Assembly (NCBI GenBank): GCA_964390515.1
Contig: CAYMIU010000005.1
Span: 13,912 to 77,911 of the forward strand
Reading direction: 5' to 3'
Length of the DNA: 64,000 nt
DNA from: an uncultured Stakelama sp.
GTDB lineage: Bacteria > Pseudomonadota > Alphaproteobacteria > Sphingomonadales > Sphingomonadaceae
The position numbers and the translations under genes were made by a program. Of the stretch, positions 6,698-64,000 are shown piece after piece (positions within the stretch are counted from its first letter, which is position 1; the number at the start of each line of letters is the position of its first letter). A model generated the notes under the pieces. The model worked only from the letters and a program-made list of their open reading frames with translations. It did not search any database and was not told where the DNA came from.

Positions 6698-7432
6698 ACC
6701 ACCCGAAGATCGGCACCAGGGGTGAGCGGATTGAACGATGCGCACCCTGCACGCTGGATAAAGTCGTGGTTTGTTCCGTTGCTCCCGTTTGACTTTTGGC
6801 GCCGATCATCGCGGCGCCCTCGACATCCATCCAGCTCGCGATTGATGGCCCGAACGACAAGCTCGAGCCCGTCTCTCTGGGCAGCGCAAATCGCTCCCGA
6901 CGGCTCGGTGACAATAATCGTCAGCCTCAAAGCTCGGCGTACGTTCGTCCACCACAGCGCCGTGCCGGTTGGCATGTCGACCATCTACTCTGTCATGCGC
7001 GGCAATGAGACGTCTACCCGCATCTTTACGATCCTGCCAAAGGATGTTGACCAAAATCAAACCTATCGGCGGGGCGATGCCGTTCATGCGTCGCCTAACT
7101 TCGGGGGGTATCGCGCTCCACGCCGGCGCTCTGCCTGGCTAGCTCAGGCCAGTTGCCGGTTGACGCGGATATGCGCTGGATTTTCAGCAGTCGGCTCAGC
7201 GACGAAGCCCATCTGCTGCTCAAAAACGATTGCGGAACGGTTCTGCCGTTCGTCGAGCGATGCCATGCTCGATCTACCTCACTGGCGTAGCGTCTCTACC
7301 AACATTCGAGCAAGGACCAGCGCCCCCCACCCCCCGCTTTTATGGTAGGCGCGGATGTTGATGGCGACGTCACGATCGCGCGTGGTGACATCACCTGCGA
7401 GCATTGCCGGAGCGACCAGCCCGCCCGCATAG

Positions 7433-8101
7433 CTAACATTCGGTCTTGGCTGACGCACTCGACACTGTTCCTGACATAGCCCGATGGATTGCCGTCACCC
7501 GTTTGACGTGAGCGATGCTGCACCCGGCGAGTTCGGCCGTCTTCGCGATGCTCATACCCGCCTCTCGCAAGCCTACGATGCGGCGGTGGTGGGCTAGATC
7601 GGGCTTGCGGCCGGTGTAGCGCCCTGCCCTCTTGGCAATCTCAATGCCTTCACGCTGCCTCTCGCGCCGGGTCTCGTAGTCGTCGCGTGCGGTTTGGAGT
7701 GCCACGCGCAGCAGCATATCCTGCACCGCTTCCAGTACGATGCGCGCAACGCCCGCGTTGTCTGCCACGAGTTCGGACAGGTCCACAATGCCAGGCACTG
7801 CCAGTCGCGCTCCCCTGCCCCGGATCGCCGCCACTAGCAGTTCGGCTTCCGGCAGCGGTAAACGGCTGATCCGGTCGATCTTCTCAGCGATCACAACTTC
7901 GCCCGGCTGCAGGTCATCTACCATTCGCAGCAGCTCCGGCCGGTCTGGCCGAGCGCCAGACGCCTTCTCACGGTAAACCGCCGCGACGTAGAACCCGGCC
8001 GCGCGCGCGCCTGCGACGATACTCTCCTGCCGCGTCAGATCCTGCTCATCCGTGCTCACCCGCAGATACACCCGCGCCGCTCGTATCCCGCTGCCTGCCA
8101 C
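7433..8101 (-). CDS. Serine recombinase (resolvase family)
   Basis: ARVYLRVSTDEQ catalytic Ser motif, EKASG..RPEL, DRISR, C-terminal HTH. Confidence 0.92.
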   Translation of the reverse strand: MAGSGIRAARVYLRVSTDEQDLTRQESIVAGARAAGFYVAAVYREKASGARPDRPELLRMVDDLQPGEVVIAEKIDRISRLPLPEAELLVAAIRGRGARLAVPGIVDLSELVADNAGVARIVLEAVQDMLLRVALQTARDDYETRRERQREGIEIAKRAGRYTGRKPDLAHHRRIVGLREAGMSIAKTAELAGCSIAHVKRVTAIHRAMSGTVSSASAKTEC

Positions 8102-8120
8102 GTCCTCATCCTCCCGTCTG

Positions 8121-8146
8121 GCTCAATCGGGTACACCCATTTGAGC
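8121..8146. repeat. Inverted repeat, candidate res subsite
   Basis: GCTCAATCGGGT-AC-ACCCATTTGAGC directly upstream of the resolvase. TCACCAAGC direct repeats at 8201 and 8253, and a further inverted repeat at 8259-8286. Confidence 0.45.
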
Positions 8147-8349
8147 CAGTGCTGCGGCAGCCGGCTCTGAATAGCAAGCACCGATCCTGTCGAGCCTAGC
8201 TCACCAAGCCAGGCCTAAGTAGCTAATGGGCACGGACATGACCGACGACTGATCACCAAGCACGTAGGAGTGCCCTCCTTCGTGCTATGCATCAGCGGCG
8301 TCATGCGGTACATTTTGGTGATTGGGTCAGCCAAGCGAGTTCAGTGCAG

Positions 8350-8598
8350 ATGGAAGCACAGAGGGTCAAGATTGTGGACGGTGGTAAACTCGTGATCCCG
8401 GCGGCTATGCGCCGGGAGCTCGGGATCACCACGGGTGACACCGTTCTCGTCGATGTGGACGATGGCGAGTTGCGGGTACGATCAGTGCCTAGAGCGCTTG
8501 AACGTGCTCGCGCGATCCTGCGCAGGTATGTGCCCGAAGGCGTCGGCTTGGCTGACGAGCTGATTGCGGAGCGCCGGCGCGAGGCGGAGCGTGAGTAG
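8350..8598 (+). CDS. vapB: AbrB/MazE-type antitoxin (VapB-like)
   Basis: VKIVDGGKLVIPAAMRRELGITTGDTV swapped-hairpin motif; overlaps the PIN gene. Confidence 0.88.
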   Translation: MEAQRVKIVDGGKLVIPAAMRRELGITTGDTVLVDVDDGELRVRSVPRALERARAILRRYVPEGVGLADELIAERRREAERE

Positions 8599-8989
8599 CA
8601 AGGTCGTCCTCGACGCCTCCGCCCTGCTCTGCCTTCTGAACGACGAGCCCGGGGCGGGTCGGGTAGTGGACGTCCTTACCCGTTGCATCATCGGAACGAC
8701 CAACCTCGCCGAGGTCGTCTCCAAGCTTCGGGACCGAGGATTGCCGCTCGACGAAGTGCGTGAGGCGCTTGGCGGGCTACACCTCGACGTCCGGCCCCTC
8801 TCTCCTGCACAGGCACTGATAATAGGCGACCTCCGGCCGTCGACGAAGGCGCTCGGTTTATCTCTCGGCGACCGGGCGTGCCTTGCCTTGGCGATCGACC
8901 TTCAAGCGGACATGTTCACGACGGACGGCCCACTAGCGAGCGCCGATGTCGGCATTACCATCACCAATGTGCGGCCGCTTGCAGAGTAG
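8591..8989 (+). CDS. vapC: PIN-domain toxin (VapC)
   Basis: VVLDASALL..NLAEVV..GLSLGDRACLALA..TTD acidic PIN residues. Confidence 0.9.
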   Translation: MSSKVVLDASALLCLLNDEPGAGRVVDVLTRCIIGTTNLAEVVSKLRDRGLPLDEVREALGGLHLDVRPLSPAQALIIGDLRPSTKALGLSLGDRACLALAIDLQADMFTTDGPLASADVGITITNVRPLAE

Positions 8990-9037
8990 TCGCACATTCG
9001 TGCTTTTAGGTACGGCACTCTGCAGTCGGGGACTCCC

Positions 9038-10432
9038 ATGACTACCGCTCCGACACCGGTGCGCGACACCATTCTGATCACGCACGCCAATCCCGAGGAC
9101 AATCGCTTCTCCCGGTGGCTTGCCGGGCGCCTAACCACGGCCGGGTACAAGGTCTGGGTCGACGTTCGCGCGCTTCGGGGCGGCGACGATTTTTGGGACA
9201 AAATTGAGCACGTGCTGCGGCATGAGGCGATCAAGCAGATTGTTGTCGTTTCCGAGCACATCGGGAAGCAAGGCGTAAAGAAGGAACTCGCCCTCGGCGA
9301 CGTTATGCGTCGCAAGCTCGGCGACGCGGAGTTCATGATTCCGATCCGGATCGCCGACGTGGACTTCGGCGATTTCCCAACAGAGATCCTGCGGCAGAAC
9401 GCACACAATGCGTTCCCTAACTGGGCGGCCTGCCTTCAGCCCCTGTTCGAGACGCTCGACACCTCACGTGTGCCGAAGGTCGATCATCCGGACGCCGAAC
9501 AGCTTGCGATGATCGTCGCTGCCCAGGAGGATGGTCGGAAGCTGGTCACCCCAAATCCCGAGATGCTCTACAGTAACTGGTTCGAACTTCGGGCGAGACC
9601 TGACGTCTGGATACTGGAGGCGAAGGGAACGACTGCGCAGCTGGAAGCCTGGAGCCAGTTCACGCGTGTTCCCCATGTGTTGCACGAGGGAGGCGCCATC
9701 GCCTTTTGCGGACCCGATGCGATCGAACGTCTCGACGACAGCGCTCCGCCGTTAAAGGCGCGCGCCAGCTTGCCCTTCAACGGCGTGATAGACGGTACCT
9801 ATAGCCGGCACTTCGGTGAGCGCTCCAACGCACGGCGGATCGCTGTCAATCTGATGCGTCAGCATTGGGATCTGGCCATGCATCGTCTCGGGCTACTTCC
9901 TGTCGATTTCGCTTCGGGCGCCCGCGGCCGCTTCTTCCCCGACGGGCTGATCGACGGGAGAGTCAAGCTGACGCTGAGCGACGGACATCGGGTTGACCGG
10001 GTGCTGAGCGGCAAGTTCAAGGATCGGCGCTGGCACTTGTGCCTTGTCGCTCAACCAAAGCTCTGGCCGGATGCTCTTTTCCGGGTCCATGCCAATGTCG
10101 CGGTGACGACCGACGGCCGAACCCCGCTCCCGGGTGAACAGCTGCAGCGCATTCGATTGCGCCTCACGCGGTCTTGGTTCAACGACAAATGGCGCGATAT
10201 GCTGCTCGCCGCGATGGGGTGGCTTGCCGAAGGTGATGCGGCCCTAGACATTGCCGCGTCCGGTGAGCGCCTCGCGGTTGCTAGCCTACCAATGAGCTTC
10301 GAGTTCCCGGTCAGCTTCGCCGCGGAAGAGGACCGCCGAGCCGAGGAAGACGAGGGAGGCCAGATAACCCTGTCAGAGGACTTCGAAACGGCCTTCGACC
10401 GGGATGAGATGCCGGAGGAGGCCGACGCATGA
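9038..10432 (+). CDS. TIR-APAZ effector of a SPARTA system
   Basis: N-terminal TIR: ILITHANPEDNRFSRWLAGRL..GYKVWVD..DFWDKIE..GVKKELALG with the putative catalytic Glu. Followed by an APAZ-like region and an acidic C-tail; ATGA overlap with pAgo. Confidence 0.92.
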   Translation: MTTAPTPVRDTILITHANPEDNRFSRWLAGRLTTAGYKVWVDVRALRGGDDFWDKIEHVLRHEAIKQIVVVSEHIGKQGVKKELALGDVMRRKLGDAEFMIPIRIADVDFGDFPTEILRQNAHNAFPNWAACLQPLFETLDTSRVPKVDHPDAEQLAMIVAAQEDGRKLVTPNPEMLYSNWFELRARPDVWILEAKGTTAQLEAWSQFTRVPHVLHEGGAIAFCGPDAIERLDDSAPPLKARASLPFNGVIDGTYSRHFGERSNARRIAVNLMRQHWDLAMHRLGLLPVDFASGARGRFFPDGLIDGRVKLTLSDGHRVDRVLSGKFKDRRWHLCLVAQPKLWPDALFRVHANVAVTTDGRTPLPGEQLQRIRLRLTRSWFNDKWRDMLLAAMGWLAEGDAALDIAASGERLAVASLPMSFEFPVSFAAEEDRRAEEDEGGQITLSEDFETAFDRDEMPEEADA

Positions 10433-11964
10433 GCATCCTCACGCATCGCATCGCCGAACCTTTGCTCGAGTTCGGTCACGGGCAGCAGATGGAAGCGCCA
10501 AAAGATGGGCTCTTCCTCTTCGGGCCACTCGAGGGTCCCGATGGCCGCTCCCAGGTACGCCTGGGCGTCATCGGGACGGAGAGCGGTGTCGGCCTATCCC
10601 GCCGCTGGTTAGAGCGGATCAGCCTGCATATACCCGGCAAGGTCGATGCAAAGGGCAAGCCCGTCCTATGGGCACCCGCATGGCCAGGGTTCGAGGCCTG
10701 CTTCGGCATCGTACTGCCAACCCGCGGCATGGTCGAGCTAGCGCTCAAGAGCGGCGACATCGATCATTGCATCAAGAAGAACAATCGCGCCGACGCGGTC
10801 CGCTCCACGGTGCTGCTGTTCGCCGACGCGATACGCGCGCACATCCGCGCTGAGGAGCGCCGTCCCGACGTCTGGCTCGTTGTGGTTCCGGACGTCGTCT
10901 ATCGCTACGGACGTCCCCAAGTAGCACCACCGCCCAAAGACGAGCGCACTCCCTCCGACATCACGAGCTTTAAAGACGCCAAACGCTTCTTCCAGATGGG
11001 TGGTGACCTATTCCCAGACACGGTGCGGGATGCCGAGACCTACCTGTTCTCGAGCAATTTCCACCACCAGTTGAAAGCCGAGTTGCTGCAGGACGGCGTC
11101 GTCCTTCAACTGATCCTCGAAAGCACGTTGGTTGATCGCAACCTCAACATCGCCAACGACCGCCGGCTTGGCCTCCAGGACGAGGCCACGGTTGCATGGA
11201 ACTTCTGCACCACGCTCTACTTCAAGATGGACGCCAAGCCGTGGGCGCTGGCCCATGTCCGGCCTGGCGTGTGCTACGTCGGACTGGTGTTCAAGAACGA
11301 CGACACGCCTGCGGCAACGGGCGAGGCCTGTTGCGCCGCGCAGATGTTCCTCAACTCAGGCGACGGCCTTGTCTTCCGCGGCGCCCTCGGCCCTTGGTAT
11401 TCCGACGAGCGCAAAGAGTATCATCTGTCGAGGAGCGCGGCGGCGAATTTGATGACCTCGGTGGTCGAGGGCTATAAGCTCAAGCACGGCAAGCCACCTA
11501 ACCAGCTGTTCATTCATGGGCGGCACCGCTTTTCCGACGATGAGTGGGACGGCTTTTGCAGCGCAGTGCCCACTGAAACACAGCTGGTAGGCGTCAGGAT
11601 CAAGCAGCTCGATGATGTTCGGCTGTTCCGCCCCTCTGCGTCGACACCAGTCCTGCGCGGCACGGCTCTTACCGTGGGTGACTGGTCAGGTTACCTTTGG
11701 GCGCGGGGGTTCGTGCCTCGACTTGCAGGGTATCAAGGATTCGAGACACCCAAGCCGCTCACCGTCGACGTGACGCATGGCGAAGGCGACATCGTAGAGG
11801 TGCTCGGTGACATTCTTGCGCTCACCAAGGTCAACTACAACGCCTGCGATTTCGCTAGCGCCCTTCCCGTGACGCTCAAGTTCGCCGATCGGGTGGGTGA
11901 GATCCTGATGGCGTCGCCACATACCGTTATCGCACCGCCGCTGCCGTTCCGGCACTACATCTGA
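10429..11964 (+). CDS. ago: Short prokaryotic Argonaute (MID-PIWI, nuclease-dead)
   Basis: IAEPLLEFG start, NFHHQLKAELL MID pocket, LYFK..KPW, VCYVGLVFK (no catalytic Asp), DILALTKVNYN..PVTLKFAD..PFRHYI terminus. 511 aa with no N/PAZ domains. Confidence 0.93.
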   Translation: MSILTHRIAEPLLEFGHGQQMEAPKDGLFLFGPLEGPDGRSQVRLGVIGTESGVGLSRRWLERISLHIPGKVDAKGKPVLWAPAWPGFEACFGIVLPTRGMVELALKSGDIDHCIKKNNRADAVRSTVLLFADAIRAHIRAEERRPDVWLVVVPDVVYRYGRPQVAPPPKDERTPSDITSFKDAKRFFQMGGDLFPDTVRDAETYLFSSNFHHQLKAELLQDGVVLQLILESTLVDRNLNIANDRRLGLQDEATVAWNFCTTLYFKMDAKPWALAHVRPGVCYVGLVFKNDDTPAATGEACCAAQMFLNSGDGLVFRGALGPWYSDERKEYHLSRSAAANLMTSVVEGYKLKHGKPPNQLFIHGRHRFSDDEWDGFCSAVPTETQLVGVRIKQLDDVRLFRPSASTPVLRGTALTVGDWSGYLWARGFVPRLAGYQGFETPKPLTVDVTHGEGDIVEVLGDILALTKVNYNACDFASALPVTLKFADRVGEILMASPHTVIAPPLPFRHYI

Positions 11965-12058
11965 TCCCATGAGCGCCGACCGAGGCTGAGGGAGATCGAG
12001 CGCGAGGCGGAGACGCTGCGGTCCACCAATTTAGGTACATATCCGCTGTTTCGGGTGC

Positions 12059-13216
12059 GTGCCGCCGGGTGGATGCTGTCCACCATTTCAGGGAAACCTA
12101 CAGGCAGATTCGCGGAAAGAAGTTTCCGAAATCCGGCAACTCGTTTCCGAACTGGCCCGCCTCGTGCAAGACCCGACCGACCCCGAATCGCTGCCGACCT
12201 CGCGCGCGCTCGTCATCGTCGAGCCGGCGGAGCTGGTGCCGGTCGCGACCCATCTGGCGCTACGGCCGACGCCGACGCTGCCCGGGATCGTCGACCTCGA
12301 GACCGAGCGCGCCGACGCCTATGCGCGCGCCGCGCGCGCCGACAACACGCACCGGGCCTATGCCGCAGACTGGACGATCTTCACGACCTGGTGCGCGGAG
12401 CGTGGTGAACGTCCGCTGCCGGCGTCGGCCGAGCTGGTGCGGCGCTTCGTTGCTTGGGAGGCCGACCGCGGCCGCTCGCCGGCGACGATCGAGCGCCGCG
12501 TTGCGGCGATCGGTCATTATCACCGCGCCGAAAACTTTGTCGCGCCGACCGCGCTGCCCGATGCCGGCAGACTGCGCGAGACGATGGCAGGAATCCGCAA
12601 CAGCCGCGGCGGTAAGAAGACGCGCAAGCGCGCGGCCGACGCCGCCATCCTCGAAGCGATGCTCGGCACCTTTCCCGGTGAGGGCCTGCGCGCGCTGCGC
12701 GATCGGGCGGTGCTGGCAATTGGGATGGCGGCGGCGCTCCGCCGCTCCGAGCTGGTAGCGCTCACCGTCGATGACATCGAGCTCGTGCCCGAGGGCCTGC
12801 GCATCATCATCGGGCGGTCGAAGACCGACCAGGGGCAGGAGGGCGCGGAAGTGGCGGTGCTTGAAGGGTCGCGGCTGCGGCCCAAGGCGCATCTGCTCGC
12901 GTGGATGGGGGCGGCCGGGCATGACGGCGGTCCGTTGTTCCGACGACTAACCCGAGGCGATGAGCTGACAGACGACGGGATGAGCGATCGGGCGGTTGCG
13001 CGGCTGGTCCAGGCCGCGGCGCGCAAGGCCGGGCTGGACGAGCGCCAGTTCGCCGGCCACTCGCTACGTGCTGGCTTCCTGACCGAGAGCGCTGCGCGAG
13101 GCGCGACGATCTTCAAGATGCAGGAGGTCAGCCGTCACAAGACGGTGCAGATCCTGTCAGAGTACGTGCGCTCGGCCGAGCGGTTTAGGCATCACGCCGG
13201 TGCGGGCTTCCTATAG
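12059..13216 (+). CDS. Cre-like tyrosine recombinase (true start probably later, near 12164)
   Basis: ADNTHRAYAADW N-domain; RDRA..ALRRSEL, RSKTDQ, GHSLRAG, RHK, EY catalytic set. Confidence 0.92.
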   Translation: MPPGGCCPPFQGNLQADSRKEVSEIRQLVSELARLVQDPTDPESLPTSRALVIVEPAELVPVATHLALRPTPTLPGIVDLETERADAYARAARADNTHRAYAADWTIFTTWCAERGERPLPASAELVRRFVAWEADRGRSPATIERRVAAIGHYHRAENFVAPTALPDAGRLRETMAGIRNSRGGKKTRKRAADAAILEAMLGTFPGEGLRALRDRAVLAIGMAAALRRSELVALTVDDIELVPEGLRIIIGRSKTDQGQEGAEVAVLEGSRLRPKAHLLAWMGAAGHDGGPLFRRLTRGDELTDDGMSDRAVARLVQAAARKAGLDERQFAGHSLRAGFLTESAARGATIFKMQEVSRHKTVQILSEYVRSAERFRHHAGAGFL

Positions 13217-13382
13217 ATGAACCGTCGACCACCGCCACAGTACCGAGCCAGTGCAGCCCTAGTAGTGCATGCAAATGGGCGTGGGCATCGGGCTGAACCG
13301 CGTGTCGAGCGAGCGGCACCTGATCGACATCGACGCGCGTCGCGCGTCTGTTCCGCCCGAGCGCCTTACCCATCGAAGCCGG

Positions 13383-13901
13383 TCAGGCAGTCCCGGGATG
13401 GCTGAGCGACGCCGGGGTGAGCATCCTTATCGACAACTCCCCATGCGTGCCGAGCTGCTCGAGGAGCGCAATGCTATGTTCCTCCACGCCATCGGGATCC
13501 TCGAACACCTCCATCGTGTAGCAACCCCGCGCCATGTCGCAGCCGGGCGTGTCCCTGGCAGCGCGTGAGTATGGCTCCGGCCAGCGGCAGACGAGTACCC
13601 AAGGCCACCCCTCTTCCGGCGGCTCGTAGCGGGAGATCAGGACGTTGTCGGAGACCAATGCCGACGGGCGTCTATCGAGGAGGTCAGGCGCGACCGCAGC
13701 CGAGCGTGGTTCATCGAGAAAGCGGTCCAGCTCGGCGCGTTCCTCGTCGGTCTCAAGGATAATTGCATAGTAGCGGCCGAGTGCCAGCCTCTCCCCGCAA
13801 TTTCGGATCGGCATGTCGATCAACATCACGCTCGGCGCGGCGATCATGGGCGAGGCGTAGAACATGCGCTCGCGCGCGAGGGTTTGCGAGAGGCGGTACA
13901 T
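13383..13901 (-). CDS. Hypothetical protein
   Basis: 172-aa ORF with globular-like composition, unlike the Arg/Pro-rich shadow ORFs; no family recognised. Confidence 0.55.
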   Translation of the reverse strand: MYRLSQTLARERMFYASPMIAAPSVMLIDMPIRNCGERLALGRYYAIILETDEERAELDRFLDEPRSAAVAPDLLDRRPSALVSDNVLISRYEPPEEGWPWVLVCRWPEPYSRAARDTPGCDMARGCYTMEVFEDPDGVEEHSIALLEQLGTHGELSIRMLTPASLSHPGTA

Positions 13902-15309: not shown

Positions 15310-15963
15310 TCAGCTCAGCGTCCGCCCGAACCACAGAACCCGCCCGACGATGTCGATGCGGCTGGGTTCGATATTCTGCCAGCTTGGATAATCAGGGTTG
15401 TCGCTCTTGATCGTGATACCCCGCCCCGCCGGCTGCCGCGCGAGCCGCTTGACCATCAGACTGTCGTCGAGGCGCAGCACGTAGATGCCGTCGCGCAGCC
15501 GGCCGACACCATCCCTGCGATCGACGAGGACATCATCACCGTCCGCCAACGTCGGCGCCATGGAATCGCCCTTGACCTGGATGATCGAAAGGCCGTCAGC
15601 CGACCCCTTGGTGCGCTCGCGCAGCCAGCGCGGATCAAAGCCGATCGACGTGCGTCGCGCCTCGCCGAAGTCGGCCGCGCCATAGCCGGCCGACGCATAG
15701 ACATCGAGCACCGGAACCTGCTGCAGCGTGGGCTTCTCCCACTCCTGCGGACCGCCGAGCAGCGTCTCCTTGACGCCGAGATACGCGGCCAAGGTCCGGC
15801 GGTCCTGCTCGGCAAGCTGCTTGGGCGTGCCGCGCTTGATGAACTGCTGGATATAGGCGGGATTGCGCCCGATCAGCCGGGACAGCCCGGCATAATCCTC
15901 ACGGCGCTCCTCGATCAGGCGCTGCAGCGCCTCGCGCGGATGTTCGATCGTCGGGACCATCAT
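15310..15963 (-). CDS. CI/LexA-like repressor (HTH + S24 autopeptidase)
   Basis: LSRLIGRNPAYIQQFIKRG HTH; SAGYG Ala-Gly cleavage site; VKGDSM (Ser) and MVKRL (Lys) dyad. Confidence 0.9.
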   Translation of the reverse strand: MMVPTIEHPREALQRLIEERREDYAGLSRLIGRNPAYIQQFIKRGTPKQLAEQDRRTLAAYLGVKETLLGGPQEWEKPTLQQVPVLDVYASAGYGAADFGEARRTSIGFDPRWLRERTKGSADGLSIIQVKGDSMAPTLADGDDVLVDRRDGVGRLRDGIYVLRLDDSLMVKRLARQPAGRGITIKSDNPDYPSWQNIEPSRIDIVGRVLWFGRTLS

Positions 15964-15997
15964 AGGGGATTTCCTATCGCACCTGGTGTGCCGTATA

Positions 15998-16012
15998 GAA
16001 CATAACGGGAAC
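15998..16012. promoter_or_regulatory. Alphaproteobacterial LexA (SOS) box
   Basis: GAAC-ATAACGG-GAAC between the divergent repressor and Cro-like genes. Confidence 0.75.
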
Positions 16013-16033
16013 GACGTAAAGCGAGTCGGCGTG

Positions 16034-16216
16034 ATGGATGGAGAATTGCTGCCCAGGATCGAGCTTTTGCTCGCCCGCGTTGGCCTGAGCGCAACCCGCT
16101 TCGGGCGCATTGTCGTCCATGATCCGCGCTTCGTATTCGACTTGCGAGCGGGCCGACGGCCACGCCGCCGGGTTCACGCGCGCGTTCACGCCTACCTCGC
16201 CGAGCATGGCGTGTGA
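16034..16216 (+). CDS. Small Cro-like DNA-binding protein
   Basis: IELLLARVGLSATRFGRIVVHDPRFVFDLRAGR; divergent from the S24 repressor. Confidence 0.7.
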   Translation: MDGELLPRIELLLARVGLSATRFGRIVVHDPRFVFDLRAGRRPRRRVHARVHAYLAEHGV

Positions 16217-16904: not shown

Positions 16905-16980
16905 ATGAAGCTGTAGGAAAGTGCCGCGATCCAAGAGGACAGGCGGCGACAGGGGCGCGCCACCAGGATGCAAGAAGCCC

Positions 16981-17868: not shown

Positions 17869-17936
17869 AGAAGAGGCAGGCGGAGCAGTCATGCCCCGAT
17901 GACGGCGCTGGAGCCGGTCGGGCCGGAGTCTCTGCC

Positions 17937-22148: not shown

Positions 22149-22210
22149 TTGGACGAGCCGCTCGACAGGAAAAGGCTCACGATCTATTTAGGTGTTACCA
22201 CTAGAAAGTA

Positions 22211-22905: not shown

Positions 22906-22986
22906 CGGCAGAAGAAGAGGAAAGGCTGGCGCCGGGCAGGTGAGCCTCAGGTGCAATCGGGCACCGGGGCTCACGGAGCCTGTCCC

Positions 22987-25005: not shown

Positions 25006-25029
25006 CGTTTCTTTATCGAACACCCCTGC

Positions 25030-25060
25030 GGGGCGGCCTTCCGCGAGGTCGCCCCCTTTT
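25030..25060 (+). terminator. Intrinsic terminator after parB
   Basis: GGGGCGGCCT-TCCGCG-AGGTCGCCCC then CTTTT. Confidence 0.6.
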
Positions 25061-25136: not shown

Positions 25137-26057
25137 ATGCGCCAGTATCGATCCGACAATGTTCCGGCGAACCCTGCCGAGACGATCACCCAGGCCATTA
25201 TCGAGCGGCTCGAAGCGGGTGTCCGACCGTGGCGACAACCTTGGACAGGTGGCCCCGTTTCGCGCCCCTTGCGGGTCTGTGGCACGCCCTACCGGGGCGC
25301 CAACGTCATCTGGCTCTGGATGGCGGCGCAGGCGCGCGGCTATGCCTCTCCGACCTGGATGACCTACCATCAGGCGCAGCTTCTCGGTGGGCAGGTCCGC
25401 AGGGGCGAGCGCGGCACGGTCGCCATCTTCTACAAGAGCTATACCAAGGAGGTCGAGAATCCGGGCACGGGCGAGCGCGAGGACGAGGCCCGGCGCGTGC
25501 TCAAGAGCTTCACCGTGTTCAATGTCGACCAGATCGACGGCCTGCCCGAACGGTTCGCTCCTGTCCTGACGCCGCTGCCCGAACCCGACGAACGCGACCG
25601 CTCAATCGGCGCGTGGTTCGCGTCCGTGCCGGCGCGGCTCCGACATGGCGGGGGCGAGGCCTATTACATGCCGTCGACCGACGAAATCACCATGCCCGAC
25701 GTCGCGTCGTTCCGCAGCCGCGACCAGTATCGGGCGACGCTCGCGCACGAGATGGCGCACTGGACGGGGCATGCGACCCGGCTCGATCGCGCGCTCGGCA
25801 ACCGCTTCGGGAGCGACGCCTATGCCATGGAGGAGCTCGTGGCTGAGCTTGCCTCGGCGATGGTCGGGGCCGCCTTGGGATTGCCGGTCGATCATCTCGA
25901 CGATCATGCAAGCTACCTCGCGTCCTGGCTCAAGGTTCTCAAGACCGACAGCCGCGCGATCCTGACCGCCGCCGCCAAGGCCGAGGAAGCCAGCGCCTTC
26001 TTGCTCGCCTTCCAGCCCGAAACGCAGCCGGTCGAACCGGCGCTGCTCGCCGCCTGA
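25137..26057 (+). CDS. ardC: ArdC antirestriction / ssDNA-binding protein
   Basis: ITQAIIERLEAGVRPWRQPW, YRGAN, WMTYHQA, FNVDQ, LAHEMAHWTG, YAMEELVAE, HASYLASWLKVL. Confidence 0.93.
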   Translation: MRQYRSDNVPANPAETITQAIIERLEAGVRPWRQPWTGGPVSRPLRVCGTPYRGANVIWLWMAAQARGYASPTWMTYHQAQLLGGQVRRGERGTVAIFYKSYTKEVENPGTGEREDEARRVLKSFTVFNVDQIDGLPERFAPVLTPLPEPDERDRSIGAWFASVPARLRHGGGEAYYMPSTDEITMPDVASFRSRDQYRATLAHEMAHWTGHATRLDRALGNRFGSDAYAMEELVAELASAMVGAALGLPVDHLDDHASYLASWLKVLKTDSRAILTAAAKAEEASAFLLAFQPETQPVEPALLAA

Positions 26058-31241: not shown

Positions 31242-31532
31242 ATGTCATATCATCAGTTCATCACCGTTCGCATGAGCGGAGCGATGCGCGCCGAGCTCGA
31301 CCAACTCGTTGCAAGTCGCAGGACCGACATCGGCAAACTCGTCCGCGAGCTGATCGCTCGCGAACTGCATGCTGCCCCTGATCGGATCGGGGAGGCGCTG
31401 GGACAGCTGCTGTTCGTAGCCATCGCGCTCGACGAGCTCCTTGCCGCCCATGCCGATCCCAATCTGCGCGCGACCGTGATCCGCCTGTGGCGCGACGCGA
31501 CCTCCGAGGAGGGCCGGTTTCATGCGGCATAA
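31242..31532 (+). CDS. Ribbon-helix-helix relaxosome accessory protein (TrwA-like position)
   Basis: FITVRMSGAMRAELDQLV..IGKLVRELI RHH pattern; overlaps traD. Confidence 0.65.
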   Translation: MSYHQFITVRMSGAMRAELDQLVASRRTDIGKLVRELIARELHAAPDRIGEALGQLLFVAIALDELLAAHADPNLRATVIRLWRDATSEEGRFHAA

Positions 31533-33825
31533 GCTCGTCAACTTCACCCGCGGCAGCCAGCTGATCGGGCATTTCGGCTTTATGTTCGCGGCCGGTCTCA
31601 AGGGGCCCGCCCTGGTCGCCACGGCAGTGTTCGCGGGCCTGATCTGGTGGCGGGTCACCGCCGCCCTGAGCGATGCCGAGAGCTATTTATCGTGGATGCG
31701 ACTTTATGTCGCGGGCTACACCTGGTTCGAGTTCGACCCCACCAAGACCGTCAACCTAGCACGCGACGGCACCCCTATCCTCGTGCCGATCGCGCGCGCC
31801 GCCGGTCACCCGCTGATGGCAGCCGCCTGGACCAAATGCATGATCGCGGTGCGCAGCGGTGCCATTCTCGCGGCCGCTATCACCTTACCAGCGACCGTCG
31901 CCTTCGCCTGGGTAGCGGCATGGTTCGGCCGTCGCTCAAAGGAGAGCCGGCACGAGCGCGGAGCGACTCTGGCAACCTTGCCGGCGCTGGTGACGGAGGT
32001 CGAGGGGCACAATCGGGTCGAGCGAGCGACCGAATATCGGCGTATCCTCGGGGCCGGATGGCGCTTGTCGTCGACAGCCGAACGTCAGGCAGCGAACCTC
32101 TACGAACCCTATTCGCTCGCCGGCGTGCCATTTCCGTGGCGCCTCGAGCAGAGCCACGTCATGCTGATCGGCACGACCGGTACGGGCAAGACCGTCTGCC
32201 TGCGCGACTTGCTCGCCCAGGTCCGCGCGCGACGGCACCGCGCCGTCATCTTCGATCTCACCGGCGCGTTCATCGAAGCCTTCTTCGATCCCGCACGCGA
32301 CGTCATTCTGAACCCGCTCGACGCCCGTTGCCCGCAATGGTCGGTGTTCGAAGACTGCGTCGACGAGGCCGGCTTCACGGCGGCAGCCGAGGCGCTGGTG
32401 CCGCATGACGGCGGCGGCGCCGAGCAGTTCTGGGTGCTCGCGGCACGCATGCTGTTCGTCGAAATGTGCCTCAAGCTTGCTGCCGAGGGGCGAACGACGA
32501 ACCTCGCGCTGTCGACCGAATTGATGACCGCAAGCCTAGCGCATGTGCACCAGCTTATGCAGGGCACGGTCGCCGACCCGCTGACTGCGCCGGAGGCGGC
32601 CCGAATGGCGGAGTCGATCAGGGCGGTCTTCAACGCCAACGCCAAGGCGCTACGCATGCTGCCGGTCGATGGCCCTCGCTTCTCGGTGCGACGCTGGGTC
32701 GAGGGCGAAGGGGAAGCCGGCGGCTTTCTGTTCGTCTCGGCGCGCTACGTCGACATGGCGGTGGCCTCGCGACTGCTGACCGTCTGGATGGATACGGCGA
32801 TGAACACGCTGATGGCCGGCCCGCGCACGCCCGACCTGAAGCTCTGGTTCCTGTTCGATGAGCTGGGTGCTCTGCACCGGTTACCGGCGCTCGAGAAGGG
32901 GCTTCAGACCGCCCGCAACTATGGTGGCGCGATCGTCGCCGGCGTTCATGCCTATGCCAAGCTCAAGGAGACCTACGGCGACAACATGGCGATGACCTTG
33001 GCTGCGCTCGCCCGAACCAAGCTGGTGCTCGCCACCGCCGATCGGGAGTCCGCCACCTGGTGCTCCGATTTCATCGGACACCGCCAATATCGCGAGATGG
33101 AGGAGGGCTATAGCTACGGCTACAACAATGCTCGCGACGCCGTCAGTCTCACGCCGCGACGGCAGATCGAGCCGCTCCTGCTGCCTGATCAGCTGATGAA
33201 CCTGCCGCGCCTCCAGGGCTATCTGAAGTTTCCGGACGGCTTCCCGGCCGCGCCAATCCGGCTCGACTATGTGGGCTTCCCGACCATTGCGGCTCCGTTC
33301 GAGCCAAGACACGCACATAGCTTCCGAACGCCACAGGGATCGCCGTCTTCGGGAGGTGAAGCCGGAGGCAATGAGGCGCCTGGATCAAGCGATCAGGGTC
33401 CTGGCGCACGCGATGCGCGGGAGCATGATATCGACGCATCGCGCGAGCCTTTGACCGACCGGAGCGATCGTCACGAAGAAGAACCAGTAGCGGCGACGGA
33501 TCCGACGTTGAACCCTGCCCTCGTCCGATCGAGCCAAAGGACCGTGGGGCCGAGACCGGAACAGGGGCCTGCGGAAGGACCACTTAACAGTCCACACCGA
33601 CCGGCGCTGCCGAAGCCTCCTGGATCGGGTGGCGTTCAGATCACGCCAGCCAGCAACGCTCCCGAGGAAGTGCAACGCGGCAACATGTTCGTCCCGGGCA
33701 AGCGCGATCCCGGCGCCGACGTGCGCACCCCGGCATCGCCCGAGAACGTCACCCGCCGCGAACTCCGCGAGGGCATCGCGCCGTCCGAAGATCGGACGAT
33801 CGACCAGCCTGATCTCGGCTTCTGA
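31522..33825 (+). CDS. traD: Type IV coupling protein (TraD/TrwB)
   Basis: Two N-terminal TMs, LIGTTGTGKT Walker A, LFDELGAL Walker B, acidic/Pro-rich tail. Confidence 0.93.
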   Translation: MRHKLVNFTRGSQLIGHFGFMFAAGLKGPALVATAVFAGLIWWRVTAALSDAESYLSWMRLYVAGYTWFEFDPTKTVNLARDGTPILVPIARAAGHPLMAAAWTKCMIAVRSGAILAAAITLPATVAFAWVAAWFGRRSKESRHERGATLATLPALVTEVEGHNRVERATEYRRILGAGWRLSSTAERQAANLYEPYSLAGVPFPWRLEQSHVMLIGTTGTGKTVCLRDLLAQVRARRHRAVIFDLTGAFIEAFFDPARDVILNPLDARCPQWSVFEDCVDEAGFTAAAEALVPHDGGGAEQFWVLAARMLFVEMCLKLAAEGRTTNLALSTELMTASLAHVHQLMQGTVADPLTAPEAARMAESIRAVFNANAKALRMLPVDGPRFSVRRWVEGEGEAGGFLFVSARYVDMAVASRLLTVWMDTAMNTLMAGPRTPDLKLWFLFDELGALHRLPALEKGLQTARNYGGAIVAGVHAYAKLKETYGDNMAMTLAALARTKLVLATADRESATWCSDFIGHRQYREMEEGYSYGYNNARDAVSLTPRRQIEPLLLPDQLMNLPRLQGYLKFPDGFPAAPIRLDYVGFPTIAAPFEPRHAHSFRTPQGSPSSGGEAGGNEAPGSSDQGPGARDAREHDIDASREPLTDRSDRHEEEPVAATDPTLNPALVRSSQRTVGPRPEQGPAEGPLNSPHRPALPKPPGSGGVQITPASNAPEEVQRGNMFVPGKRDPGADVRTPASPENVTRRELREGIAPSEDRTIDQPDLGF

Positions 33826-33831
33826 CCCGCC

Positions 33832-36750
33832 ATGCTGTCGGTCGCGAGCGTCAGGTCCGCCAAGGGCGCTGCCGGCTACTTCGCGGCCGACAACTATTAT
33901 GCCGGGAGCGAGGCGGAGGCTGCCGGCGAGTGGGTCGGCAAGGGTGCAGAGGTGCTTGGTCTGACCGGCAAGGTCGACCAGGCAACCTTCGAGGCGTTGC
34001 TCCGAGGTACCCTGCCGAACGGCGCCCAGATCGGCTCGCCAGAGCGGCACAGTGCCGGGGTGGACCTCACCTTCTCGTTGCCCAAGAGCTGGTCCCTGCT
34101 GGCCTTGGTCGGGGGCGATCGGCGGATCGTCGAGGCGTACCGTGCGGCGGTCAAGGACACACTCGCCTGGGCCGAACACAACGCCGCAGAGACGCGGATG
34201 GAGGTGCGCGGCCGCGAAAAGGTCGTCGCGACAGGCAATCTCGTGGCGGCGCTGTTCGAGCACGACACCAGCCGCGCGCAGGACCCGCAAGCGCACCTCC
34301 ACGCCGTTGTGGCGAATGTGACCCAAGGCCCCGACGGAAAGTGGCGCGCACTCCACAACGGCAAGCTGTGGCAACTCAACACGCTGCTCAACGCCATCGC
34401 GATGGCGGGCTTCCGCGAGCGGGTGGAGGCCCTCGGCTACACGCTCGGCGACCGGACGAAGCACGGCAATTTCGAAGCGGCTGGGCTCACTCGCAACATG
34501 TTGATGGCGTTCAGCACGCGCCGTCAGCAGATCCTCGCCAAGGTCGACGAGCTCGGCAACCGAAGCCCGGCTGCGTTCGATGCGGCGACACTGATGACGC
34601 GACCCGCCAAGGCGGCCGTCGCGGACCGGGCCGATCTCTACGCCGCCTGGCGAACCAGTGCTGCCGAAGCCGGCATCGATCTCCAGGCGATCATCGCCGG
34701 AGCAGACCGACAGGCAAACGTCGAAGCATCGCCATGGTCGCGGCTTGCGGCCTTTGCTGGGCAGACCGCGACCAGGGGCCGGGAGCTTGTCCTTGCCGTG
34801 CAGCGCAAGCTCGGGATCGAGAAAGCCGATCCCTACCTGCCACGCTACACCAAGGGGATGAGCGCGTCCGACGTCGCCGCCTCGCACGCCGTTGCGTCTG
34901 CAATCCGCCACCTCGAAGAGCGGGAGGCGGCCTTCCTGAAGACCGATATCCTCAAGGCGGCGCTCGACACAGGGCTGCCCGTCGGCATCGACGCCGTCGA
35001 GCAAAAGGTCGAGGCGCTGCTCACGTCGGGACGCATCGTCGCGGGTGCCGGACGACGGGCCGACATGGTCACGACCGCGCGCGCGATCGAAACCGAAAGG
35101 GCGATGTTGGCGGGTGTCGAGACCGGTCGCGCGGCCGGCAAGATCTATCTCGCCGCCGATCGAGCCGGACCCCTTCTCGATGCCGCGGCGCAGGCGCGCG
35201 CTGCGATCATCCTCAATCCGGGGCAGCGCGCCGCCGGCATGATGCTGCTGAGCTCGGACGATCGGATCATCGCGATCCAGGGCGTGGCCGGTGCCGGCAA
35301 GAGCAGCGTGCTCGCGCCGGTCGCCGACCTGATACGGGCGGAAGGCAAGCCGGTCCTGGGGCTCGCGGTCCAGAACACTCTCGTGCAGATGCTGCAGCGG
35401 GAAACCGGGATCGAATCGATGACGGTTGCGCGCTTCCTGAAGGCGCATGATCGACTCCTCGCGCCCTCCCCTGATCGCACAGGGCTGTCGGCAGCGCGCG
35501 CGAGCCTCGGCGGCGCCGCGATCCTCGTCGACGAGGCCTCGATGCTCTCCAACGCCGATCAGCTGAAGCTGGTCAGGCTCGCCAACCTGATCGGTGTCGG
35601 GCGATTGGCGTTCGTCGGCGACGCCCGGCAGCTGGGTGCGGTCGATGCCGGCAAGCCCTTCTCCGTCATGCAGCAGGCGGGCGCGCCGACCGCGCAGATG
35701 AGCCAGAACCTGCGCGCCCGCGGGGAGGCTGTTCGGACCGCAGCAGCCGCCGCGCAGATCGGTGCCATCGATCGGGCGATGGAAGCTCTCGCACCATACA
35801 CGATCGAAGCGCCCGAGCGGGCCAGCGCCGAAGCCGCCGAGCGCTGGCTGGCGCTCGATCCCGTCGATCGCGCGCGGACCGCGATCTACGCGTCGGGGCG
35901 TCGGCTCCGCGCGGAGGTCAACGAGAAGGTGCAGCAAGGCCTGGTTGAACGCGGCGAGATCGGCCCGGGCAAGCTTGTCCTGACCGTGCTGGATAGGGTC
36001 AGCGTCACGAGTGAGGAGCTTCGCCGCCCGCAGACCTATACCGAAGGCATGGTGGTGGAGATCAGTCGCGCTCAATCTGCCCAGCGGCTCCCGCGCGCCC
36101 GGGCGACCGTCGAGCAGGTGGATGCCGGAACAGGCACTGTGACCCTGCGCCTCTCGCGCGGCGCCACGCGCACCTTTCGACCCGATCGGTTGCGGATCAG
36201 GGCGGGCGAGAGCTCGTTCCAGCTTTTCGAGCCGAAGCGGCTGGAGCTGCACGAGCAGGATCGTATCCGCTGGACCGCCAACGACCATGACCGGAAGCTG
36301 TTTAACGCCGATCAGGCGCGGGTCACTGCCATTCTCGATGGTCGGGTGACGCTCGAAACGAGTCAGGGTCACCGGGTCACCTTGAAGCCGGACGACCCGA
36401 TGCTCCAGCGCCTCGATCTCGCCTACGCGCTCAACGCTCACATGGCGCAGGGGCTGACGTCGGATCGTGGTATCGCGGTCATGGAGACGCGCGACACCAA
36501 GCTCGTCAACCAACAGACCTTCCTCGTGACGGTCACGCGATTGCGCGACGCATTGACGCTGGTCGTCGATCGCGCGGACAAGCTCGAGCGTCAGCTTACC
36601 CGCAACGCGGGCGGCAAGACGTCCGCGCTGGAGACCAGTGGCGGGCTGAGAATTGGCGCTGCCGATATCGAAAGACAGCGACCAACCGCACCGGAGAAGG
36701 TGCCGGACCTCGACCCTGGACGGACCAAGCCGTACGACATCGGCATCTGA
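33832..36750 (+). CDS. trwC: MOBF relaxase-helicase (TrwC/TraI)
   Basis: MLSV..AGYF..DNYY, DLTFSLPKSWS, HDTSRAQDPQAHLHAVV 3H motif, QGVAGAGKS, VDEAS, AHMAQGLT. Confidence 0.95.
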   Translation: MLSVASVRSAKGAAGYFAADNYYAGSEAEAAGEWVGKGAEVLGLTGKVDQATFEALLRGTLPNGAQIGSPERHSAGVDLTFSLPKSWSLLALVGGDRRIVEAYRAAVKDTLAWAEHNAAETRMEVRGREKVVATGNLVAALFEHDTSRAQDPQAHLHAVVANVTQGPDGKWRALHNGKLWQLNTLLNAIAMAGFRERVEALGYTLGDRTKHGNFEAAGLTRNMLMAFSTRRQQILAKVDELGNRSPAAFDAATLMTRPAKAAVADRADLYAAWRTSAAEAGIDLQAIIAGADRQANVEASPWSRLAAFAGQTATRGRELVLAVQRKLGIEKADPYLPRYTKGMSASDVAASHAVASAIRHLEEREAAFLKTDILKAALDTGLPVGIDAVEQKVEALLTSGRIVAGAGRRADMVTTARAIETERAMLAGVETGRAAGKIYLAADRAGPLLDAAAQARAAIILNPGQRAAGMMLLSSDDRIIAIQGVAGAGKSSVLAPVADLIRAEGKPVLGLAVQNTLVQMLQRETGIESMTVARFLKAHDRLLAPSPDRTGLSAARASLGGAAILVDEASMLSNADQLKLVRLANLIGVGRLAFVGDARQLGAVDAGKPFSVMQQAGAPTAQMSQNLRARGEAVRTAAAAAQIGAIDRAMEALAPYTIEAPERASAEAAERWLALDPVDRARTAIYASGRRLRAEVNEKVQQGLVERGEIGPGKLVLTVLDRVSVTSEELRRPQTYTEGMVVEISRAQSAQRLPRARATVEQVDAGTGTVTLRLSRGATRTFRPDRLRIRAGESSFQLFEPKRLELHEQDRIRWTANDHDRKLFNADQARVTAILDGRVTLETSQGHRVTLKPDDPMLQRLDLAYALNAHMAQGLTSDRGIAVMETRDTKLVNQQTFLVTVTRLRDALTLVVDRADKLERQLTRNAGGKTSALETSGGLRIGAADIERQRPTAPEKVPDLDPGRTKPYDIGI

Positions 36751-62087: not shown

Positions 62088-64000
62088 TCACTTTCGCTTA
62101 CCCCACTCTCGCGTCTCCTTCGCGCCGTCCCGATCCACCTCGACAGCGTCAAGGTTTGTGGAACTCGCAACAGAGGCTTGCTTGCGGTCGACGGTAGACT
62201 GCCCTGTTACCAACGCTTCGGCTACATCATACCGAATATCAAGGCCCGGCAACGCAGGCGCTTCTGGAGCACTCTGTTGCGCCTTTGCTACCGATCTTGG
62301 ATACGCATGCGGACGATCCAGACCACTGTCGTCGACGACCAGGGCTCGCTCTTCAGCCTCTGAGCGGATGCGATCGCCAGCATTCTTGATATATCGGCTG
62401 ATCAGAAGATCTCTTTCTGCCGCCACGTTGGTATCTGAGCTTGACCAGTCTGCAGCATTGGCTGGGTCAAACCTTTGGTACACGAGAGACGTTGAGGCGA
62501 TCTCTTCACGAGCAAACCTGAGAAAAGCGTCGCTTGTATTAAGTGCGCCGGTAGCACCGTTCGAGGAGCTGCTGGACCAGCGCTGCTCGATCCGATCTGC
62601 CGTTTCGAAGTAACGACGGGCTTCTCGACTCTGAGTGTGAGCGGTGGTCGCAGCCGAGCTAATTCCGGAAGCATTGCTCGCTACGTCTGATCGCGTTGAT
62701 GTGACGGCTGACCGCTCGAACGCGTCGCGCGTGTGCGACCAGCCTCGATCAGATGACCACGAGGTAAGTGCGTCGGCAATCCGGCTAGCGTCTTTGCTGA
62801 CCGCTGCGACATCCGTGGAACTCCACCGCTTTGAAGCTCCGGCGGACGCTCCCGCCGAGCCCCCTATCCGCGCGATACCGACCGAGCCGCCGACACTGCC
62901 TTCTATGCCAACCGACCCGGTTATGAACTTTTCGGCAGCGATCGTGTCCGCCACCTCGGCCCGAAGGCCGAAGCGGTTCTGCAGCATCTCCGATGCACGA
63001 TCCACTTCGTTGAAACTTTCGCTAATCGCCGCGCGATCGTCACTGCCATAGCTATTCGATATAGATCGATCATTGCTCACAGCGTGCCGGAACTCTTGAA
63101 AGCGGGTCACCGCGTTCGAAGTGCTCTGAACCGCTTGGTTGGACAGCGTTTCTCCACGGCTCCTCGTCTCAGACGCGACCTTCGCGGCCTCCGCAGCAAC
63201 GGATTGCGTGACCTGCGGCGCGAACGGCAACCGCGAGACAGGGACGTCCAGTAGCTGATTGCCGGCAAAGCTGGTCGCTACCGTGCCGGTGTCGTTGAAA
63301 GCACGGGTCTGGGCTGCCCCATAGGTAAAGCTCGGCGCCTGGTTCCACTGATCGTGCTGGCGGGTCTGCACCGTCTGATTGTCGAAGCTGGAGTTCCCTA
63401 GCGCGATGTTGCCGGTGGAGGCTTCTCGCGCCGCCTCCTCGGCCGCGTTCTGCGAGGGGTTCAGATAGCTGGTCGCCTGGCTCGAGATCGCCATCGCACC
63501 GCGTGCGATACCTCCGGCGAGGAAGGGTATCGAGGCGACCAGATACCCGGCGAGCAGGCCGACGTCGCTGTTCGCCTCTGACATGCCCGTGAAGCTGGCC
63601 ATGGTGAGACCGGAGCCCCCGCCTGCTCCAGTTACCTCGCCTGCTCCTTTGAACATCATCACCATATGGAGGATGACGTAGAGCGGTCCCCAGGCCGCCA
63701 AATAGAAGAAGCCGGTCAGGTAGCCCTTAAGCGCATAGGGTCCGCTTCGCGGCATGAGGAACAAGGGGAAGAGCACCGGGAAGAGAGCGTAGAAGATCAC
63801 CGTCAGCACGATGTTGAGGATGGGCACCCACTTCATCGCCGCGTGCGCAATCGAGCCGTAGGTGCGCTCGGTCTGGATGTCAGCGCGCGTCTGCGCGTAG
63901 ACGTCCACGCTTCCTGTTCCGCTCGTGCCGGCGGCGCCGTGCATGGCCTGCTGCATGGCGTTGATCGTGAGCGTCTGGCGCAGGATCTCGCTCGCGGAAG
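62088..64000 (-). CDS. traG: F-type conjugal transfer protein TraG, 5'-truncated by the window edge
   Basis: WVPIL..YALFPVLFPL..YLAAWGPLYVILH..GYLVASIPFLAGGI membrane region, then a long Ser/Ala-rich periplasmic tail. Confidence 0.88.
   Translation of the reverse strand, partial: SASEILRQTLTINAMQQAMHGAAGTSGTGSVDVYAQTRADIQTERTYGSIAHAAMKWVPILNIVLTVIFYALFPVLFPLFLMPRSGPYALKGYLTGFFYLAAWGPLYVILHMVMMFKGAGEVTGAGGGSGLTMASFTGMSEANSDVGLLAGYLVASIPFLAGGIARGAMAISSQATSYLNPSQNAAEEAAREASTGNIALGNSSFDNQTVQTRQHDQWNQAPSFTYGAAQTRAFNDTGTVATSFAGNQLLDVPVSRLPFAPQVTQSVAAEAAKVASETRSRGETLSNQAVQSTSNAVTRFQEFRHAVSNDRSISNSYGSDDRAAISESFNEVDRASEMLQNRFGLRAEVADTIAAEKFITGSVGIEGSVGGSVGIARIGGSAGASAGASKRWSSTDVAAVSKDASRIADALTSWSSDRGWSHTRDAFERSAVTSTRSDVASNASGISSAATTAHTQSREARRYFETADRIEQRWSSSSSNGATGALNTSDAFLRFAREEIASTSLVYQRFDPANAADWSSSDTNVAAERDLLISRYIKNAGDRIRSEAEERALVVDDSGLDRPHAYPRSVAKAQQSAPEAPALPGLDIRYDVAEALVTGQSTVDRKQASVASSTNLDAVEVDRDGAKETREWGKRK

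Follow-up and report, generated by a model that had tools for sequence, protein, structure and literature searches.

Intact SPARTA operon adjoining a VapBC pair in a mobile cassette of sphingomonads, on a probably conjugative, plasmid-like replicon

The DNA analysed here (the window; all positions are given on its scale) was a stretch of 64,000 nucleotides from contig CAYMIU010000005.1 of a Stakelama sp. assembly (GCA_964390515.1), and our subject was a two-gene operon at 9038-11964 that encoded a predicted SPARTA system, namely a TIR-APAZ protein and a short prokaryotic Argonaute (pAgo; the window protein is called Ago below). The TIR-APAZ gene (9038..10432, plus strand) began with ATG and encoded 464 amino acids, in which a TIR domain (residues ~1-160) was followed by an APAZ region (~160-425) and an acidic C-terminal tail (426-464). 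The short pAgo gene (10429..11964, plus strand), also with an ATG start, encoded 511 amino acids with no domains other than MID and PIWI, and its PIWI was predicted to be catalytically inactive. A previous reading made from the letters alone (hereafter the sequence-only reading) had described two coupled open reading frames (ORFs) of exactly these lengths and positions, and so we found them: the ATGA at 10429-10432 was common to the stop of TIR-APAZ and the start of Ago (junction DNA gacgcATGAgcatc). A Shine-Dalgarno-like run, GGGGA, was located ~8 nt upstream of the TIR-APAZ ATG.

General domain libraries said little about this pair. Pfam TIR_2 at residues 12-107 was the sole Pfam match in TIR-APAZ, Ago had no Pfam match, and NCBIfam offered no specific model for either protein. 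The defence-specific PADLOC profiles, on the other hand, matched over nearly their whole length: residues 8-438 of TIR-APAZ were aligned to positions 2-429 of 430 in Aga_TIR-PNTD1-PNTD2 (E=2.8e-145), and residues 6-511 of Ago to positions 5-493 of 493 in pAgo_I (E=3.5e-192). In a phmmer search of PDB chains, TIR-APAZ was aligned end to end with its counterparts in BabSPARTA (8qlo_A, 4.6e-49), MapSPARTA (8fex_A, 9.7e-47) and the 8ifk complex (1e-42). Residues 8-511 of Ago were aligned to 7-507 of the 507-residue SPARTA Ago chains with E-values of 3.8e-114 to 1.9e-109 (8ifk_B 3.8e-114 and 8fex_B 6.2e-111 were the best), while the best non-SPARTA Argonaute reached only 4.3e-44. In bits, the SPARTA chains scored 370-385 against at most 154 for the other short-pAgo structures, a gap of more than 200. 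By these alignments, the 9038-11964 pair is a divergent yet collinear member of SPARTA. For its placement in short-pAgo clade S2A we used a proxy rather than a labelled tree, namely that the top PADLOC and PDB matches were all SPARTA with large score gaps.

It can be asked whether a SPARSA (SIR2-APAZ) or SPARDA/SPARHA (nuclease-APAZ) system, or a nuclease-active Argonaute, was misread as SPARTA. SPARSA, SPARDA and SPARHA follow the same principle, since a guide-loaded inactive short Argonaute activates an APAZ-fused effector on target DNA and the outcome is abortive. The only points in favour of a different short-pAgo type were the shared MID-PIWI fold and weaker PADLOC matches to other pAgo models. 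The partner of Ago in the window was a TIR protein, not SIR2, DREN or HNH, the scores to those families were far lower in the profile comparison, and two catalytic positions of PIWI were occupied by V287 and R365 (see below). Thus, a misidentification was extremely improbable. The SPARTA architecture that had been proposed for the locus was upheld at the level of full-length models and solved chains, as well as at that of the key residues.

The sequence-only reading had placed a putative catalytic glutamate in the motif GVKKELALG. We located this motif at residues 78-86 of TIR-APAZ, where its glutamate (E83) was aligned with E77 of MapSPARTA; substitution of E77 by alanine abolishes NADase activity in both CrtSPARTA and MapSPARTA (PMC9097488). 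The equivalents of Map W46, R114 and N116 (W53, R119 and N121, respectively) were all kept. The C-terminal tail had 16 Asp/Glu against 3 Lys/Arg in its 39 residues, was aligned downstream of Bab residue 417 and was kept in 16 of 17 relatives; in SPARTA, such a tail fills the nucleic-acid cleft and autoinhibits the complex (PMC10899771). In the MID domain of Ago, residues H212, K216, Q227, T233 and K266 corresponded to H207, K211, Q222, T228 and K263 of MapAgo, which form the pocket for the 5'-phosphate (PMC10355822). None of these pocket residues varied among 18 relatives, and Ago also retained the isoleucine at its C-terminus (I511).

In order to check the PIWI tetrad, TtAgo from plasmid pTT27 was aligned with hhalign to a 15-sequence profile of the window Ago family. 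The catalytic residues of TtAgo, which we took from the established literature to be D478, E512, D546 and D660, fell on V287, Y331, R365 and D487 of Ago, and the invariant E330 adjoined Y331. In this alignment the metal-binding Asp is lost at tetrad positions 1 and 3 (V287 and R365), and the PIWI domain is predicted to be unable to cut. The absence of the catalytic Asp had been claimed before, and the profile alignment agreed with it at both D478 and D546.

MapSPARTA, CrtSPARTA and BabSPARTA of clade S2A (Koopal et al. 2022, PMC9097488; structures 8fex, 8ifk and 8qlo) were the characterised systems with which the window operon could be compared. As in those systems, the TIR-APAZ gene was upstream of the short pAgo gene, the sizes were similar (464 and 511 amino acids here versus 450-452 and 507) and the alignment was collinear over the full length. 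Also shared were the catalytic Glu, the equivalents of Trp46, Arg114 and Asn116, the acidic tail, the MID H-K-Q-K set, the C-terminal Ile and the inactive PIWI. Besides a modest sequence identity and two replaced residues (see below), there were differences in the host and in the genomic setting. Namely, the characterised systems came from Bacteroidota or Bacillales whereas the host here was an alphaproteobacterium, and the window operon, known here from its sequence, was fused to a VapBC pair in a cassette with recombinase genes on both sides, itself part of a probably conjugative replicon.

To estimate selection, the window copy was compared with 11 other Sphingomonas copies that differed from it at 5-8% of nucleotides, with a synonymous divergence (dS) of 0.21-0.32. 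The ratio of nonsynonymous to synonymous substitution rates (dN/dS) was 0.018-0.033 for ago and 0.045-0.067 for TIR-APAZ, and values this low indicated strong purifying selection on both SPARTA genes. The VapB antitoxin (0.03-0.04) and the VapC toxin (0.06-0.09) of the same cassette had comparable ratios, and the toxin-antitoxin genes together with the resolvase spanned 0.03-0.09. Judged by its reading frames, its residues and these ratios, the window SPARTA operon is intact and selectively maintained. Decay was seen elsewhere: in the plasmid copy of Sphingomonas aliaeris (NZ_CP061036.1) a +1 T insertion at Ago codon 175 shifted the frame, and RefSeq annotates two fragments. Thus, loss of SPARTA on plasmids does occur, and together with the lack of usable expression evidence from the sequencing runs at the locus it would be consistent with a decaying or silent passenger, i.e., an intact-looking immune system that does not function in this host. 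Against this stood the full-length ORFs and complete set of key residues in the window copy, dN/dS values of 0.02-0.06 at dS 0.2-0.3 across 11 species, which are incompatible with relaxed constraint, and the recurrence of the identical TIR-APAZ/Ago protein pair in several independent samples. We therefore regarded a passenger as very unlikely.

The SPARTA genes were a part of a larger conserved block. Upstream of them, on the plus strand, we found vapB (8350..8598), which encoded an AbrB/MazE-type antitoxin of 82 amino acids from a conserved ATG (Pfam MazE_antitoxin, 4.7e-08; RefSeq homologue AbrB/MazE/SpoVT), and vapC (8591..8989), which encoded a PIN-domain toxin of 132 amino acids (Pfam PIN, 3.1e-08; RefSeq homologue VapC family toxin). 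The two genes overlapped by 8 nt at the vapB stop and the acidic Asp/Glu residues of the PIN domain were present in VapC; by these features the 8350-8989 pair is a predicted type II VapBC toxin-antitoxin. A small serine recombinase (resolvase; 7433..8101, minus strand; Pfam Resolvase, 1.6e-18, and HTH_7; catalytic Ser motif RVSTDEQ) was divergent from the cassette on its left. On the right, a conserved 3' tail (11965..12102) followed ago, and just beyond it was a plus-strand tyrosine recombinase gene (12164..13216; 350 amino acids by the public gene call; Pfam Phage_integrase, 1.2e-11).

The ends of this block were sharp. In a multi-locus alignment the shared block began at 8129, even in two copies without a homologous resolvase, and the contigs of two public runs broke at 8127, near this left end. 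The left boundary itself (8129..8138), 28 bp from the resolvase start, read GGGTACACCC in the window and was the perfect palindrome GGGTATACCC in most other copies; this left end is a candidate for the res crossover site and probably is that site. On the other side, the alignment of 11 loci ended sharply at GGGAAACCTACA (...CCTACA), the blastn end points were at 12102-12104 in nine loci, and beyond 12102 every locus was different. Neither terminal inverted repeats nor target-site duplications were found at the cassette ends. A repeated 9-mer, TTTAGGTAC, occurred before TIR-APAZ (9005) and after ago (12030), and was rejected as a signal since chance alone should produce such 9-mer repeats within 6 kb and this one was absent from the more distant SPARTA loci. 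In addition, the window had one base at 13392 that was missing from all six of the public runs compared with this region; this position was inside the 3' end of a 172-amino-acid minus-strand ORF (13383-13901), and the base was either a real variant or an assembly error in the source.

A scan with one genome per GTDB species identified 11 Sphingomonas genomes whose Ago was 98-99% identical to that of the window. The genes for AbrB, VapC, TIR-APAZ and Ago kept identical spacing in all 13 cassette copies examined. By megablast, the VapBC-SPARTA block was ~92% identical in nucleotides on plasmids of Sphingomonas paucimobilis (426 and 353 kb), Sphingobium cloacae (375 kb) and S. aliaeris (203 kb), and its flanks on these plasmids were unrelated. 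The recombinases were less uniform than the cassette: the resolvase was syntenic in 9 of the 11 Sphingomonas loci at 68-93% amino acid identity, and thus was more diverged than the cassette, and downstream tyrosine recombinases were present in 7 of the 11 species-representative loci at only 45-58% identity. The GC content was 0.62 in the cassette and 0.68-0.69 in the backbone genes. We infer from this pattern that a module of ~4 kb (8129-12102) is exchanged between replicons at recombinase-associated sites. The movement of the cassette probably relies on site-specific or homologous exchange and not on transposition. A comparable arrangement is known in Tn3-family transposons with toxin-antitoxin pairs next to their resolvase and res site (Lima-Mendez et al. 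2020, PMC7157771), since there too a type II pair adjoins a divergent small serine resolvase with a palindromic candidate crossover between them. In contrast to those elements, the window cassette had no Tn3-type transposase and no terminal inverted repeats at its ends.

The constant order of the four genes made it possible that VapBC and SPARTA were one functional unit. In such a unit, a VapB-autoregulated promoter would set the SPARTA dosage, or the PIN RNase VapC would supply 5'-phosphorylated guide RNAs. The spacing fixed in 13 of 13 copies, the 48-bp gap between VapC and TIR-APAZ (81-94% conserved and without a predicted terminator), the purifying selection on all four genes and the fact that guide biogenesis of short pAgos is called unclear in a review (PMC11370952) were in agreement with this possibility. 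However, the linkage was limited to one narrow Sphingomonas lineage: in 17 more distant SPARTA loci (Ago identity at most 91%), neither a VapC nor an AbrB homologue was present within 4 kb, which marked the VapBC fusion as lineage-specific. Moreover, the characterised SPARTAs work without VapBC (PMC9097488), and a toxin-antitoxin pair beside a resolvase is by itself a common stability arrangement of plasmids and transposons (PMC7157771). A four-gene unit was therefore unlikely. If it did exist with the VapB promoter driving SPARTA, the SPARTA level would jump upon loss or titration of the antitoxin and would couple element loss or stress to immune priming; if VapC made the guides, a dedicated guide-biogenesis factor would be known for a short pAgo for the first time.

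The mobile backbone that the sequence-only reading had assumed was present in the window. On the plus strand there were genes for an ArdC-type anti-restriction protein (25137..26057; Pfam ArdcN, 9.5e-38, and MPTase-PolyVal, 5e-47), a type IV coupling protein of the TrwB/TraD type (31522..33825; TrwB_AAD_bind, 3e-156) and a MOBF relaxase-helicase of the TrwC/TraI type (33832..36750; TrwC, 6.6e-85, with AAA_30 and TraI_2B), and on the minus strand the N-terminal region of an F-type mating-pair protein TraG (62088..63956; TraG_N, 3.1e-39). Together with a single-stranded DNA-binding protein (SSB), these genes supported a mobile, conjugative context. In PLSDB, no plasmid matched the whole window, and the matches were confined to the cassette (~92% nucleotide identity), Hsp20 genes and the imuA-imuB-dnaE2 segment. 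The 203-426 kb Sphingomonas and Sphingobium plasmids with near-identical cassettes were typed as MPF_F. These observations supported the view that the carrier of the cassette is a large conjugative, plasmid-like replicon, presumably of low copy number.

With tblastn, relatives of the window SPARTA were detected on 42 of 72,556 PLSDB plasmids, nearly all of them from Alphaproteobacteria (Rhizobium, Bradyrhizobium, Sinorhizobium, Sphingomonas and others). Thirty-two of these carriers were typed as conjugative and all 40 listed records were at least 107 kb, suggesting that they are presumably low copy. In the three that we inspected (pNGR234a, a Rhizobium esperanzae plasmid and a Sphingobium sp. 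YC-XJ3 plasmid), a TIR-domain gene was directly upstream of ago. Thus, these alphaproteobacterial megaplasmid operons resembled the window operon in having a TIR protein directly before an Ago of ~500 amino acids on plasmids of at least 126 kb that were mostly typed conjugative, and they differed from it in that their Ago was 40-49% identical to the window protein and that no VapBC was found in the three inspected. On pNGR234a (NC_000914.2, 590-9492) the TIR protein was longer (640 amino acids), with a restriction endonuclease gene before the pair and a gene for a 1197-amino-acid SIR2 family protein after it, and the pair with its neighbours may be a small defence cluster. On the Sphingobium sp. 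YC-XJ3 plasmid (NZ_CP117472.1, 2424-5500), a 49%-identical TIR and Ago pair was flanked directly by traG and the relaxase gene rlxS within the transfer region.

Such locations raised the question of whom the system serves. It was possible that SPARTA is mainly a device of the mobile element for exclusion of other plasmids or for addiction, and that host defence is incidental. The conjugative backbone with an addiction module and a resolvase beside the operon, the horizontal spread of the cassette among species and the repeated occurrence of SPARTA-like operons on conjugative megaplasmids (including the one flanked by traG and a relaxase gene, as above) were in line with this idea, and published SPARTA selects against plasmid-bearing cells and gives little phage protection (PMC9097488). 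On the other hand, relatives were also found on megabase-size contigs that were probably chromosomal. The molecular mechanism would be the same as under the explanation that we favour below, with a difference only in the beneficiary, and sequence cannot separate the two. We considered a mainly element-serving role somewhat doubtful, though clearly less so than a four-gene unit.

Taken as a whole, the best explanation was that the window carries an intact, selected SPARTA of short-pAgo clade S2A that acts as its characterised homologues do and resides on a conjugative plasmid-like replicon; we put the probability of this at roughly 85%. The mechanism is known from the homologues and comprises RNA-guided recognition of single-stranded DNA, displacement of the tail, formation of a dimer and then a tetramer, and hydrolysis of NAD(P)+ by the TIR domains (PMC9097488, PMC10899771, PMC10355822). 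Accordingly worded for the window proteins, TIR-APAZ and Ago would form a 1:1 heterodimer, in which the MID pocket (H212/K216/Q227/K266) and the I511 carboxylate would bind the 5'-phosphate of small guide RNAs made from transcripts of the cell. Pairing of the guide with complementary single-stranded DNA, which should be abundant on highly transcribed multicopy invaders, would displace the acidic tail and drive Ago-Ago dimerisation followed by TIR-mediated tetramerisation. The tetramer would create a composite NADase site around Glu83 and hydrolyse NAD(P)+, and the loss of NAD(P)+ would arrest or kill the cell, so that invaded cells would be purged from the population. In this way SPARTA would most likely protect the host, and hence its low-copy carrier, against small multicopy plasmids, and VapBC would penalise loss of the cassette or the replicon.

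Self-tolerance was less of a difficulty than it may appear. The published trigger of SPARTA is a highly transcribed, high-copy plasmid that is sensed through guide RNA and target single-stranded DNA; SPARTA borne on a single-copy bacterial artificial chromosome (BAC) leaves its host alive unless such a plasmid is present; and MapSPARTA gives no robust phage defence (all PMC9097488). A multicopy trigger, tolerance on a BAC and weak phage protection together make residence on a large low-copy replicon unproblematic, and by the results of Koopal et al. small multicopy plasmids are a more likely target than phages. The sequence-only reading had proposed a weapon between plasmids and against phages that must tolerate its own replicon. 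Its plasmid part was reasonable, and the tolerance it required is less of a puzzle given the BAC result and carriers of at least 107 kb, whereas its phage part was weak in view of MapSPARTA.

Several observations weighed against this explanation. SPARTA activity in the window was predicted from homology, and identity to the solved systems was modest, ~40% for Ago and ~29% for TIR-APAZ over the printed alignments. Two residues of the characterised systems were replaced. Map Tyr105 was Phe110 in TIR-APAZ, a position where Phe and Tyr alternate among relatives, and Arg225 of Map and Bab was Leu230 throughout the subclade of Sphingomonas, Phenylobacterium and Mesorhizobium, while more distant alphaproteobacterial relatives had Arg; this arginine touches nucleotides 1-2 of the guide and, in Bab, the acidic tail too (PMC10355822, PMC10899771). 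The profile alignment to TtAgo had a probability of only 27%, with the GxD, RDG and ADR anchor motifs coinciding. The 48-bp gap between VapC and TIR-APAZ, being without a predicted terminator, suggested that VapBC and SPARTA might be co-transcribed. No usable expression evidence was obtained: the runs labelled 'RNA?' covered the locus at a flat depth of 17-18x with contigs of more than 100 kb, which identified them as genomic DNA. Finally, we found no further mating-pair formation (MPF) genes, no origin of transfer (oriT) and no replication genes in the window, and the carrier may be either a plasmid or an integrative and conjugative element. A metatranscriptome run yielded only fragmentary contigs at the locus, with no strand information. 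A promoter and terminator scan of 7300-13400 returned no plus-strand promoter-like site or terminator, and it was no better than shuffles and uninformative for an alphaproteobacterium.

The rest of the window encoded functions of several kinds. Between SPARTA and the relaxase, the block at 16921-29641 encoded a Toprim/DUF7146 primase-like protein, a Strawberry-notch-type helicase of 1444 amino acids (AAA_34 and Helicase_C_4), a ParB-like protein, ArdC, a YAcAr/SLOG protein and SSB, and this establishment and anti-defence block resembled a conjugative leading region. A damage-inducible mutagenesis set was found at ~54194-59896, 60531-61157 and 15310-16110 and comprised imuA, imuB, dnaE2 (error-prone polymerase), SRAP (SOS-response-associated peptidase) and a LexA-like S24 peptidase, the first three being named from annotations of the matching plasmids. 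Beside the relaxase, the minus strand at 37163-42667 carried two large genes for PAS/GAF hybrid histidine kinase-response regulators; a MASE1-PAS-GGDEF diguanylate cyclase gene at 4910-6697 was sensory cargo of a similar kind.

The SPARTA family itself is well described, and what is new, mildly so, is only the linkage to VapBC and the recent spread of the cassette across Sphingomonas. It had been suggested that this sphingomonad-like member and its context might not have been described. This held for the literature, in which our search retrieved no paper on a Sphingomonas SPARTA or on a link between VapC or VapBC and a pAgo. It did not hold for the public records, since NCBI already had identical TIR-APAZ and Ago proteins, encoded on a contig of 251,523 bp, and the operons from pNGR234a and other megaplasmids show that plasmid-borne SPARTA-type operons had been deposited before. 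With the window operon, the known SPARTAs gain a mesophilic, clearly selected member from an alphaproteobacterium, with an identity of only ~30-40% to the three lineages examined to date, and this distance makes it useful when guide and target rules are compared, e.g., through the change of MID Arg225 to Leu. It also provides a concrete natural setting for a system that is known mostly from over-expression in E. coli, namely a cassette that has passed among at least 11 Sphingomonas species and is carried by conjugative replicons of large size and presumably low copy number. Current understanding of SPARTA is not overturned by this setting. Rather, it agrees with the idea that copy number and transcription, not a distinction between self and non-self, decide what SPARTA attacks, and that large plasmids can turn it on small ones.

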